A DNA stretch of 64,000 bases from an uncultured delta proteobacterium (GTDB taxonomy: Bacteria > Desulfobacterota > Syntrophobacteria > BM002), in contig CAVQGX010000033.1 of the NCBI GenBank assembly GCA_963712115.1, forward strand, positions 1-64,000. Reading direction: 5' to 3'. A model generated the notes under the pieces. It worked only from the letters and a program-made list of their open reading frames with translations, was not told where the DNA came from and did no database searches. Made by a program: the position numbers and the translations under genes. Every line of letters begins with the position of its first letter. The stretch's first letter is position 1. Of this stretch, positions 31,135-35,287 are shown piece by piece.

Positions 31135-31980
31135 TTAGGCAGATTTTGCAAGATGCTCCTCCAAAACCCGCCCTAAAGCTCTAAGATGACCCTTTTCCTC
31201 CTCGGCTATATGAAAAAGAACCTCTTTAGTGGTAACATTGCTGCTCTCCGCCGCCATCCTCAGATAGAGATCCAGTGCTTGGGTCTCCACCATCATTGCC
31301 ACATCGATAACTCCGGTGACCGTCTGCAGAAACGAGTCATTCTTCGCCAAGAATTCCCCGATATCAACACCCCCCTCCATGACCACAGACTCGAGGTTCT
31401 CCTGAAATGCCTTAACCTCTTTAGGGTCCATTTCCCACTTGGAACTCACCTCCAGCAATCTTCTCATGTGGCTCTCTTCTGCTCTGACAAGATGACCGAG
31501 AAGTTCGACAAGTGCGGGATCTGTTGCCCTGGATCTCACTGTTTCATGGAAAGTCTTCAACCCCATTTCCATACTGTATGAGAGCTTAATGATCTCCTGA
31601 GGGGTTTCATCGCCCCGAACAAATTGCAGATGAAACTCCCTCGGACCTACCGCCGCGGGACCTTCCCATCCCTCCATGCCCCCTTCTAAATAGAACACCT
31701 CCTTGAAATCTTGATTGACCAGCAACTGCGCCGCCATCCGACTTCGTCCCCCCACCGCACAGTACACTATGATTGGCTTCTCCGCTTCCAGGACCTCGAG
31801 AGAGTCAACCAGTTCCGGCAATGGAACCAGTTTTGCCCCGGGCAGGTGCTCTTCTTCGTACTCCGGCGGCTGCCGTACATCCAAGAGAGTATAAGTGCCC
31901 TCTGCATGTTGGGACATGAACTCCTCGGCATCCTCTGGAAACATTACTTCCGCGCCTGAGGATTGTTGAGTTGATGTCAT
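31135..31980 (-). CDS. rhodanese domain fused to a ferritin/rubrerythrin-like domain
   Basis: LDVRQ..EY..HLPGA and YCAVGGRS; C-terminal ExxH pairs (EESH, EKGH). Confidence 0.85.
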   Translation of the reverse strand: MTSTQQSSGAEVMFPEDAEEFMSQHAEGTYTLLDVRQPPEYEEEHLPGAKLVPLPELVDSLEVLEAEKPIIVYCAVGGRSRMAAQLLVNQDFKEVFYLEGGMEGWEGPAAVGPREFHLQFVRGDETPQEIIKLSYSMEMGLKTFHETVRSRATDPALVELLGHLVRAEESHMRRLLEVSSKWEMDPKEVKAFQENLESVVMEGGVDIGEFLAKNDSFLQTVTGVIDVAMMVETQALDLYLRMAAESSNVTTKEVLFHIAEEEKGHLRALGRVLEEHLAKSA

Positions 31981-33093: not shown

Positions 33094-33310
33094 GAAATCC
33101 GAAATCCCAAGCACCAAATCCTAAACAAATTCAAATTTTCTAAATTCAAAATTCAAAACAGCATAACCCGTTTTCTTGGACCAAGTCACTGAAGGAATGT
33201 TTTGTTTTGGTATTTGAAAATTGGGATTTCGATATTGTTTCGAAACCGGGAACCCGCCCCGCAGGGGTGGGAGTCCGAAGGACAATTTCGATATTAGATA
33301 TTCGGATTTA
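33094..33310. repeat. family C palindrome with a nested GC-rich insert
   Basis: aaatccgaaatcccaagcacc ... ttcggattt with insert cccgccccgcaggggtggg. Confidence 0.7.
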
Positions 33311-33365: not shown

Positions 33366-34820
33366 CTAACCTTTGATAACCCCCATAGGTCGTAAGCGCA
33401 CCACTTTCCTGCTGATCCCAGCCCCGTACACAACTTCAACCACCTGACTCACATCCTTGTAAGCCTCGGGGATCTCTTCCCTGACTGTTGCCTTCCCAGC
33501 GCTGCGGATTATAATTCCCTGATCCTCCAATTCCCGGACTATAGCCCTGCCTTGTGACACCTTCATTGCTTGCTTGCGACTCATAACCCTGCCAGCCCCG
33601 TGGCAGGTACTGCCATAGGTCTCTGCCATGGCCTGCTCCGTACCCACAAGTACATAGGAGTAACGTCCCATGTCTCCGGGGATGAGAACTGGCTGGCCAA
33701 CCTCTTTGTAATCATCAGGTATGTCCGGGTGATGGGGCGGAAAGGCTCGGGTGGCACCTTTCCTGTGGACACACACTTTCATTTCCTTGCCCGCCACTTT
33801 ATGGGTTTCGATCTTGGCGATGTTGTGGCAGACGTCATAGATAAGCCTGAGCCCCAGACGGTCGGAGCTCACTTGAAATACCTGCTCGAAGGTTTCTCGC
33901 ACCCAATGGTAGATTATCTGTCGATTAGCAAAAGCGTAGTTGGCGGCACCTGCCATGGCTGCTAGGTACTGCTTCCCTTCCTTTGAGCTCAATGGGGCGC
34001 AACACAGCTGGCGATCCGGTAGCTCGATGCCATATTTCTGGGTGGACTTCATCAGTATCTTGATATAGTCATCGCAAACTTGGTGTCCCAGCCCCCGTGA
34101 GCCGGTGTGTACGATAATCGTCACCTGATCTTTGAACAAGCCCAGGGCTCTGGCCGCATTCTCATCGTAGACTTCATCAACGTAACCAACTTCTACAAAA
34201 TGGTTGCCTGAACCAAGCGTACCTAACTGGGGCCTGCCTCTTTCAAGGGCCCTATTGGAGATCAGGCTGGGGTCCGCACCCTCTATGCAACCCCGCTCCT
34301 CAATAAATTTCAGATCCTCCTCATAGCCGAAACCCTGTTTAACTGCCCATCCGGCACCTTTGGCCAGCACCTTTTCCAGCTCTTTGTGGCTGAGTCTTAG
34401 ATCCTTTCGTTTGGAACCGACGCCTGAGGGAATGTTGCCAAAAAGTCCATCTACTAACTTCCTTATGTGTCCCGTTACTTCCTTGCGCTCCAGACCGGAA
34501 CGCACCAGTCGCACCCCTCAGTTAATGTCGTAGCCTACCCCTCCTGGGGAGACCACTCCTTGGTCCAGAGAAAATGCTGCCACTCCCCCTATGGGAAAGC
34601 CGTAGCCCCAATGGATGTCAGGCATGGCCAGTGAGTTACCCACGATCCCAGGTAGCCAGGCAACGTTGGCCACTTGCAGCAGACTCTTGTCCTTGCGGAT
34701 ATCGGCCATCATGGCCTCATTGGCGTAAACGATGCCGTCGGTGCGCATCTTTCCTTCTTTGACCACCCGCCAACGATATTCGTCGATTTTTTGCACCTTG
34801 ATGGAATCTCCTTTTTCCAC
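33366..34820 (-). CDS. rtcB: RtcB RNA-splicing/repair ligase, predicted selenoprotein (484 aa, Sec101)
   Basis: Two in-frame ORFs joined by one TGA at 34520-34518 in [47 protein letters not shown] and HGAGR are intact. GTG start at 34820 follows GGAGG. Confidence 0.9.
34484..34504 (-). promoter_or_regulatory. bacterial SECIS-like hairpin
   Basis: TGCGTTCC-GGTCT-GGAGCGCA: 8-bp stem with a G-initiated loop starting after 21 nt downstream of the UGA. Confidence 0.8.
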
Positions 34821-34858
34821 GACAAAACCTCCTATATCCAGTATCAAGAAACCAGAAT

Positions 34859-35287
34859 CTAGATATCAAATATAACCTGGGCTTGCCATCCCTGGTCTCT
34901 TTTAGCGACCTCTAGTTGATGATAGGTCACTGCTTTTATTTCTGTTTTCATCGTATGGATGTTTGGGTCAAAAACATCGCCCCAGGCAGTGGCCTCCAAT
35001 GAAAGGCCATGTATTTTGACCTGGAAGCGGGCAAAAACAAGGTCTTCCGTATCCAGTAGATAAAGGAGTTCCTGCAGCCAGCTCACCAGCAGGGTCTCCA
35101 CATCATCCTCCTCAAGTTTGAATCTCCGCTCCACCGGGCAATCAACTGAATCAACGCTGGTAACCAGCTCGGTAAAGGCTAATCCGGCGGTCTCAAAGAG
35201 ATCTTCAAGAGTCGGGGCCTCCACCCTGACGCCGGCGTCTGCCGTGTGGTCTATGAATTCAAAGGATCCCCTGGTGTGTTCGCTCAT
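34859..35287 (-). CDS. archease
   Basis: FIDHTAD, IKAVTYH and C-terminal FDI; directly upstream of rtcB. Confidence 0.93.

Follow-up and report, generated by a model that had tools for sequence, protein, structure and literature searches.

An RtcB RNA ligase gene with a probable UGA-encoded selenocysteine at its metal-bridging position

The archease–RtcB locus

The window analysed here, a stretch of 64,000 nucleotides (nt) at the start of contig CAVQGX010000033.1 in the metagenome-assembled genome GCA_963712115.1 of an uncultured delta proteobacterium, carries on its minus strand a gene for the RNA ligase RtcB whose reading frame is interrupted by one TGA, very probably a codon for selenocysteine (Sec). 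The minus strand around the interruption reads GGC TAC GAC ATT AAC TGA GGG GTG CGA CTG, exactly as given in a first-pass annotation of the sequence, which had translated it as GYDIN-U-GVRL. Under translation table 11 the frame falls apart into open reading frames (ORFs) of 109 residues (34518-34847) and 382 residues (33366-34514), while reading through the TGA, the sole interruption, yields a single product of 484 residues, so that the two halves indeed lie in one frame as that annotation had it.

The read-through product matches the Pfam RtcB profile PF01139 over its entire length (positions 1-426 of 426, E = 1.3e-180, 601.7 bits against a cut-off of 27), and a six-frame search of the genome with this profile returned the gene, at 594.6 bits, as the only match in the assembly. 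Full-length homology to PDB chains was found with E values from 9e-191 to 2.4e-141, including 2epg (Thermus thermophilus TTHA1785, E = 9e-191) and Pyrococcus horikoshii RtcB (E about 4e-177). In these chains the TGA aligns with the cysteine (Cys) of GYDINCGVRL, which corresponds to Cys98 of P. horikoshii RtcB when counted via the 7lfq alignment.

RtcB ligases join RNA ends bearing a 2',3'-cyclic phosphate or a 3'-phosphate to 5'-OH ends, with GTP and Mn required. In the P. horikoshii enzyme one Mn ion is held by Cys98, His234 and His329 and the other by Asp95, Cys98 and His203, with His404 acting as the acceptor of guanosine monophosphate (PMC10630183). Alignment to the structure chains places D98, H207, H238, H332 and H407 of the read-through product at Asp95, His203, His234, His329 and His404, respectively, bearing out the earlier statement that the remaining catalytic motifs are intact; the ligand set is complete only if the TGA codon is decoded as Sec or Cys. 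The same source agrees with the annotation that Cys98 bridges both Mn ions and is sensitive to oxidation: replacement of the conserved Cys by alanine (Cys78 in Escherichia coli RtcB, Cys122 in the human enzyme) abolishes ligase activity, and the residue is found oxidised in enzyme purified aerobically (PMC10630183). The active-site Cys has further been described as the target of metal-induced oxidative inactivation (PMC12263435; PMC10630183).

Upstream of RtcB lies a gene for archease (Pfam PF01951, E = 5.5e-47, profile positions 1-136 of 136), and the locus is a two-gene archease–RtcB operon of the arrangement described in PMC3973293. The coordinates of all features are collected in Table 1.

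Directly 3' of the RtcB stop, at 33225-33310 on the minus strand, a G+C-rich inverted repeat stands between two copies of the 11-nt word AATATCGAAAT; the interval has no called T-run terminator.

Table 1. Features of the RtcB locus and further selenoprotein loci of the source genome
Feature	Location	Strand	Remarks
RtcB RNA ligase gene	33366..34820	-	484 codons plus TAG stop; GTG start; one in-frame TGA
TGA codon 101, proposed Sec codon	34518..34520	-	at the Mn-bridging Cys position (P. horikoshii Cys98)
Proposed bacterial Sec insertion sequence (SECIS) hairpin	34484..34504	-	5' arm 34497-34504, loop GGUCU 34492-34496, 3' arm 34484-34491
AGGAGG ribosome-binding site	34828..34833	-	7 nt 5' of the GTG start at 34820; sequence inspection
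Archease gene (RtcB activator)	34859..35287	-	upstream, 38 nt from the RtcB start
Other selenoprotein loci, source genome	C22:26789-27709, C45:9950-12983, C20:157087-157812		selD and two FdhA-like loci with in-frame TGA

Conservation and distribution of the TGA codon

Genomes were searched with the read-through protein, and internal stops were reported whatever the stop codon. A set of relatives comprised 61 genomes including the source genome, 54 of which gave a match. Within the source family all 18 matching genomes, from four genera and at 80-93% identity, carry one TGA, and the four genomes of the family without an RtcB match are 61-87% complete; the 33 genomes of other families in this set that cover codon 101 all lack a stop. 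A sample of the phylum held 301 genomes, 244 with a match, and among the best 150 of its 252 match rows one TGA occurs in 32, from nine families, with TAA or TAG in none of those listed. Over both searches the internal stops are TGA in 48 of 48 cases, never TAA or TAG. In the loci that were fetched, the TGA stands at the same codon throughout (18/18 from the relatives and 30/30 from the phylum sample), and the 22 fetched Cys-type loci have TGC or TGT there.

A wider view was obtained with a degenerate pattern, GY/FDIN-TGA-GV, scanned over one genome per prokaryotic species, which returned at least 120 stretches; the pattern requires TGA by construction, and the choice of stop codon is tested only by the relatives and phylum-sample searches. 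Among the 80 stretches listed, 79 are RtcB genes with an in-frame TGA at the position of codon 101 and one is spurious (L133). The 79 comprise 19 from Nitrospirota/Thermodesulfovibrionia, including Candidatus Magnetobacterium casense, 14 from Acidobacteriota, two from Binatia, one each from Eisenbacteria, Gemmatimonadales, Polyangiaceae and 'Pseudomonadota', and 40 others that are of Thermodesulfobacteriota/Deltaproteobacteria type or have no taxon label.

Near-identical DNA is present in public sequencing runs labelled as estuary and marine-sediment metagenomes (labels only). One public contig (run X1) spans 33370-34795 with 19 differences, none of them at 34518-34520, and is the only public DNA contig that bridges the TGA. 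Orthologs with TGA at the Cys codon and recovery of the TGA in independent sequence had both been named as checks in the first-pass annotation, and both came out in its favour: the codon is present in 47 of 47 checked relatives and in 79 of the 80 pattern matches listed, and the public contig keeps it.

Both halves of the interrupted gene are under similar purifying selection. Within the family (16 genes), synonymous and nonsynonymous differences amount to 0.285 and 0.133 for codons 1-100 and to 0.339 and 0.121 for codons 102-484; the corresponding values for the 30 other TGA genes are 0.378/0.297 and 0.407/0.293.

A constrained hairpin behind the TGA codon

The hairpin lies inside codons 106-112 (VRSGLER), with its first base 13 nt downstream of the TGA, and consists of eight pairs, one of them G-U, closed by a loop of 5 nt, GGUCU, whose first base comes 21 nt past the TGA. 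In the model for bacterial SECIS elements (bSECIS) given in PMC13188914, the apical loop has 3-9 nt with a G among its first two positions and lies 16-37 nt from the UGA, the upper stem has 4-16 bp, and the minimum free energy is -7.5 kcal/mol or lower. All of these features are present here, namely a 5-nt loop, 8 bp, G in first position, 21 nt spacing and -13.1 kcal/mol for codons 105-114, and the coordinates and geometry agree with the SECIS-like hairpin proposed from first inspection. Under synonymous recoding of codons 105-114, a fold as stable as -13.1 kcal/mol arose in 0.7% of 300 trials (mean -4.7, standard deviation 2.4). An equally strict hairpin follows 1015 of the 175160 TGA triplets of the genome (0.58%). 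The hairpin is unusual for the genome but on its own not decisive.

Selection at the RNA level was examined in a codon alignment of 69 RtcB genes (47 TGA, 22 Cys), with synonymous divergence taken, for each of 476 windows of nine codons, as the proportion of same-amino-acid pairs that use different codons. The window that starts at codon 106 coincides exactly with the hairpin, and in the TGA genes it is the lowest of all 476, whether the set is all 47 genes (0.323 against a gene mean of 0.569), the 17 from the source family (0.160 against 0.399) or the 30 others (0.303 against 0.589). In the 22 Cys genes the same window ranks 376 of 476, at 0.632 against a gene mean of 0.577. When codons 105-114 were shuffled using each gene's own synonymous codons, the mean z was -2.49 in the TGA genes, 33 of 47 falling at or below 5%, versus -0.81 in the Cys genes, with 3 of 22 at or below 5%. 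The hairpin region is constrained at the RNA level in the TGA forms only.

With a strict finder for G-loop hairpins (stem of 5 bp or more, spacing 16-37 nt), one was detected in 90 of 116 distinct Sec-type regions, in 5 of 22 Cys forms and at 16.5% of random genomic TGA sites. The stems of other phyla have other sequences in the same place, with a GACC/GGUC-type stem in Acidobacteriota, Binatia, Eisenbacteria and Gemmatimonadales and a longer stem, further 3', in Nitrospirota.

Interchange of Sec-type and Cys-type genes

An unrooted FastTree phylogeny was built from 119 RtcB proteins (97 Sec-type, 22 Cys-type) with the Sec/Cys residue masked, in a sample enriched in Sec forms through the pattern scan. 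At least seven Sec/Cys changes are needed to account for it. Cys forms of four families adjoin Sec forms, with distances to the nearest Sec form of 0.11-0.35, and some of them retain the hairpin: the Cys-type gene L086 (TGT) has a perfect stem of 8-9 bp identical to that of its TGA neighbour L065, and L041 (TGC) is as stable as the Sec forms, its fold surpassing each of 300 synonymous recodings. Such genes look like recent Sec-to-Cys conversions with a fossil SECIS, a direction that is read from an unrooted tree.

The Cys-type loci L090 and L091 likewise retain the SECIS-like hairpin of the Sec-type genes that neighbour them.

Selenocysteine machinery of the source genome

The assembly consists of 70 contigs and is estimated at 94.4% completeness and 5.99% contamination. 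It encodes selA (618.2 bits, cut-off 267.9), selB (395.4 bits, cut-off 242.25, profile positions 1-580) and selD (381.8 bits, cut-off 125). The selD gene has an in-frame TGA of its own in GKGG-U-ACK, followed by a stem-loop, which fits the UxxK motif listed for selenophosphate synthetase in PMC13188914, and FdhA-like matches with in-frame TGA occur on two contigs. Across the phylum sample selA is present in 279 of 301 genomes, including all 32 with a TGA-RtcB, and the six selA-less genomes among the RtcB matches listed have no stop in RtcB. A tRNA for Sec (tRNA-Sec) is intact in four of five relatives searched (75 bits, anticodon TCA).

Proposed decoding and the evidence against it

Taken together, the gene is best explained by standard bacterial Sec recoding: with high probability, judging from the sequence evidence above, it encodes Sec at the metal-bridging position through UGA. 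In the RtcB mRNA, which would carry UGA at codon 101, the stem-loop 13 nt downstream within the coding sequence would serve as a bacterial SECIS. Its recognition by SelB with Sec-tRNA(Sec) would lead to insertion of Sec in place of termination, and the product would be a full-length 3'-phosphate/5'-OH RNA ligase of 484 residues in which a selenolate, instead of a thiolate, would bridge the two Mn ions of the guanylylation site and ligate them as Cys does. The advantage of Sec may be resistance to irreversible oxidative inactivation, or altered metal handling. The 484-residue seleno-ligase of the first-pass annotation is thus supported, as a predicted product, by the conservation of the TGA, the constraint on the hairpin and the presence of Sec machinery.

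Several observations weigh against this proposal. The selC gene was not found in the source genome by Rfam, by ARAGORN or by a motif scan. The best matches to RF01852 (tRNA-Sec) reach 45.8 bits, below the cut-off of 47, and are tRNA-Ser according to ARAGORN; Rfam found no tRNA-Sec around selA, selB or selD with E up to 1, and the six matches of an anticodon-loop/T-loop scan include none that is tRNA-like. ARAGORN reported 44 tRNAs in the whole genome and no SeC, with tRNA-Asp and tRNA-Phe likewise not found. In contig C54, positions 1-18 are identical to the final 18 nt of a congener's selC, the flank diverging thereafter, and this contig start is probably an assembly break inside selC. Of the sel genes that the first-pass annotation named as a check, selA, selB and selD are therefore present and selC is represented only by 18 nt at a contig start. 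Since selA occurs in 279 of the 301 sampled genomes, the selA test hardly discriminates.

An integrated island at the C54 break was considered and rejected, as no integrase is encoded in the first 5 kb, whose products are CsgG-like, DUF2333, Cache and PDZ proteins.

On the RNA side, contigs from RNA libraries flank the TGA on both sides, stopping at or near it, and none bridges it by 31 nt. The fold of a 76-nt segment is unremarkable as a whole (z = -0.81), and at gathering thresholds Rfam has no match at the hairpin, the whole window giving only four tRNA matches. Covariation in a fixed register yielded one double-change pair (C-G to A-U, both synonymous, in L038), a result equalled in 339 of 500 shuffles, and with 47 sequences it was on most measures no better than shuffles. 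The 5' arm, UGCGCUC, is almost invariant and lies within conserved codons, and the 3' arm pairs in three registers, namely a perfect stem of 8 bp, a stem in which one base bulges out and the loop is GGUC, and a 7-bp stem that is shifted. The weakness of fixed-register covariation is explained by this near-invariance together with the three registers, and because of the latter the synonymous-site tests were relied on instead. The expectation of a covarying hairpin in orthologs was borne out as RNA-level constraint confined to TGA forms, and weakly as fixed-register covariation.

Chemistry adds further reservations. Selenolate is a soft ligand for the hard ion Mn2+, and the metal site may thus behave otherwise than in the Cys enzymes. 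[quoted passage not shown]

Alternative explanations

Conservation of both halves at full length requires that the UGA be read through, which does not by itself identify the residue inserted, and all non-TGA orthologs have Cys at this position. The codon might then be read without Sec, either by a near-cognate tRNA for tryptophan or Cys or as Cys delivered through the Sec machinery under selenium scarcity, leaving Cys or tryptophan at residue 101. This is improbable, as the hairpin fits SECIS geometry and is constrained in the TGA forms only, and dedicated Sec machinery is present in the source genome as well as in all 32 sampled TGA genomes; tryptophan, in addition, could not ligate metals, and RtcB with alanine in place of Cys is ligase-dead (PMC10630183). 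More improbable still is a truly split gene, in which an N-terminal piece of 100 residues would assemble with a C-terminal piece of about 380 residues, translated from its own start, into a Cys-less enzyme. Gene callers do give exactly such pieces, the listed relatives at 92% identity or more being 379-387 residues long, and in the window a GTG stands two codons 3' of the TGA. Against it, TAA and TAG are never found among the 48 internal stops, the junction coincides without exception with the codon of the catalytic Cys, and the assembled enzyme would be without an essential ligand (PMC10630183). Nor is a restart codon conserved. Of the 47 TGA genes, 26 have GTG as codon 103 and the other 21 a different Val codon (GTA, GTC or GTT), and codon 106 is ATG, GTG or TTG in 39 and CTG or ATA in 8. 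No ribosome-binding motif is seen 5' of codon 103 in the window sequence.

A nonsense mutation or assembly error in a decaying pseudogene, for which the occurrence of just one in-frame stop in a metagenome-assembled genome (estimated contamination 5.99%) might speak, is scarcely credible here. The same TGA recurs in 47 fetched relatives and at least 79 further genomes, both halves are under purifying selection, the independent public contig keeps the codon, and the gene is the only RtcB gene of its genome and stands in an intact operon with archease. The 80-93% identities of the relatives exclude the repetition of one misassembly among them. Insertion of Sec thus remains the preferred account of the interrupted frame.

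Comparison with known RtcB enzymes and selenoproteins

The Cys-type enzymes, among them P. horikoshii PH1602/RtcB, T. thermophilus TTHA1785, E. coli RtcB and human RTCB, share with the window gene the same ligand set, homology over the full length and an archease partner encoded next door. They differ in the codon for the Mn-bridging residue, which is TGC or TGT in Cys-type RtcB and TGA with a SECIS-type hairpin in the window gene. Among known selenoproteins the nearest parallels are FdhA (Mo/W) and the [NiFeSe] hydrogenases (Ni), where Sec coordinates the catalytic metal, as is proposed for the window RtcB, and where the same bacterial recoding by UGA and a downstream hairpin is used; for these enzymes the Sec ligand has been proposed to protect from irreversible over-oxidation (PMC13188914). 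Unlike RtcB, whose reactions are nucleotidyl transfer and the formation of a phosphodiester and involve no net redox change, they are redox enzymes, and their metals are not Mn ions bridged by a Cys/Sec residue.

Sec has been placed at the identical RtcB residue before, in the engineered P. horikoshii U98 protein (PMC4150793). That protein is artificial, was made via UAG and EF-Tu with no SECIS and is reported to be self-cleaving, whereas the natural genes combine UGA with a SECIS and, being conserved, presumably give stable and active products. The best NCBIfam match of the window gene is the intein-containing RtcB family NF038162, with residues 100-484 on profile positions 578-961 and a score of 770 bits against a cut-off of 1150. 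The insertion point of that intein abuts the same Cys/Sec codon, Cys98 being described as an intein splice junction (PMC4150793). The window gene contains no intein, and its peculiarity is the codon rather than an insertion. No selenoprotein model for RtcB is among the NCBIfam matches.

The first-pass annotation had allowed that Sec-RtcB might have been predicted before, for which the full-text literature and a 2026 catalogue, supplementary tables excepted, gave no confirmation. Table 1 of that catalogue (PMC13188914, May 2026), called the most comprehensive inventory by its authors, holds 119 prokaryotic selenoprotein families and subfamilies, with no entry for RtcB, PF01139 or an RNA ligase, and ligase and splicing are absent from its main text. 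A search of full-text literature, outside which lie supplementary tables and subscription journals, found no natural Sec-RtcB; the main texts of selenoproteome papers contain no RtcB, and the only mentions of 'ligase' (PMC8318568) concern pyrrolysine synthesis. An earlier listing of RtcB as a computational candidate is possible, for instance in the supplementary tables of PMC8318568, PMC5029168 or PMC12013277. The enzyme family and the recoding system are each known; their combination, and Sec in a non-redox RNA enzyme, are apparently uncatalogued.

Other observations in the window

Positions 1-84 on the minus strand, which are also the start of the contig, match a tRNA by Rfam (49.5 bits) that ARAGORN did not report. 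The ORF at 31135-31980 on the minus strand combines a rhodanese domain with a rubrerythrin/DUF892-like domain; rhodanese-like proteins are among the selenoprotein families listed in PMC13188914.

Implications

One practical consequence is systematic mis-annotation. In a collection of 5.8 billion proteins, the relatives listed with identities of 92% and above are all ORFs of 379-387 residues that start just past the TGA, several of them named tRNA-splicing ligase RtcB, and full-length matches appear from 74% identity downward. In many sediment and soil genomes RtcB would thus be mistaken for a broken gene or for one that lacks its N-terminal part.

Most prokaryotic selenoproteins are known or presumed redox enzymes (PMC13188914), and an RNA ligase with Sec as a bridging metal ligand would, if true, widen the known roles of selenium. 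It would also be a natural counterpart to a problem of the RtcB field, where the active-site Cys is what leaves the enzyme vulnerable to inactivation by oxidation (PMC12263435; PMC10630183). Natural pairs of Sec and Cys orthologs that lie close in the tree (distances 0.11-0.25) are ready material for testing the benefit of Sec. Since the assembly holds no second RtcB gene, the organism itself would depend on the supply of selenium for its RtcB-mediated RNA ligation.

A wider interpretation can be offered only tentatively. Sec-RtcB may be an old, widespread and unrecognised selenoprotein family of several bacterial phyla in anoxic sediments and soils, and the first selenoenzyme of RNA repair or processing, in which Sec bridges two Mn ions for a reaction that is not a redox one. 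Its selenolate might guard against the metal-catalysed irreversible oxidation that inactivates Cys-type RtcB and that animals counteract by means of PYROXD1, possibly with a shift in metal preference, at the price of making RNA ligation selenium-dependent, and the fossil hairpins of repeated Sec-to-Cys reversions would then show when that advantage lapsed.

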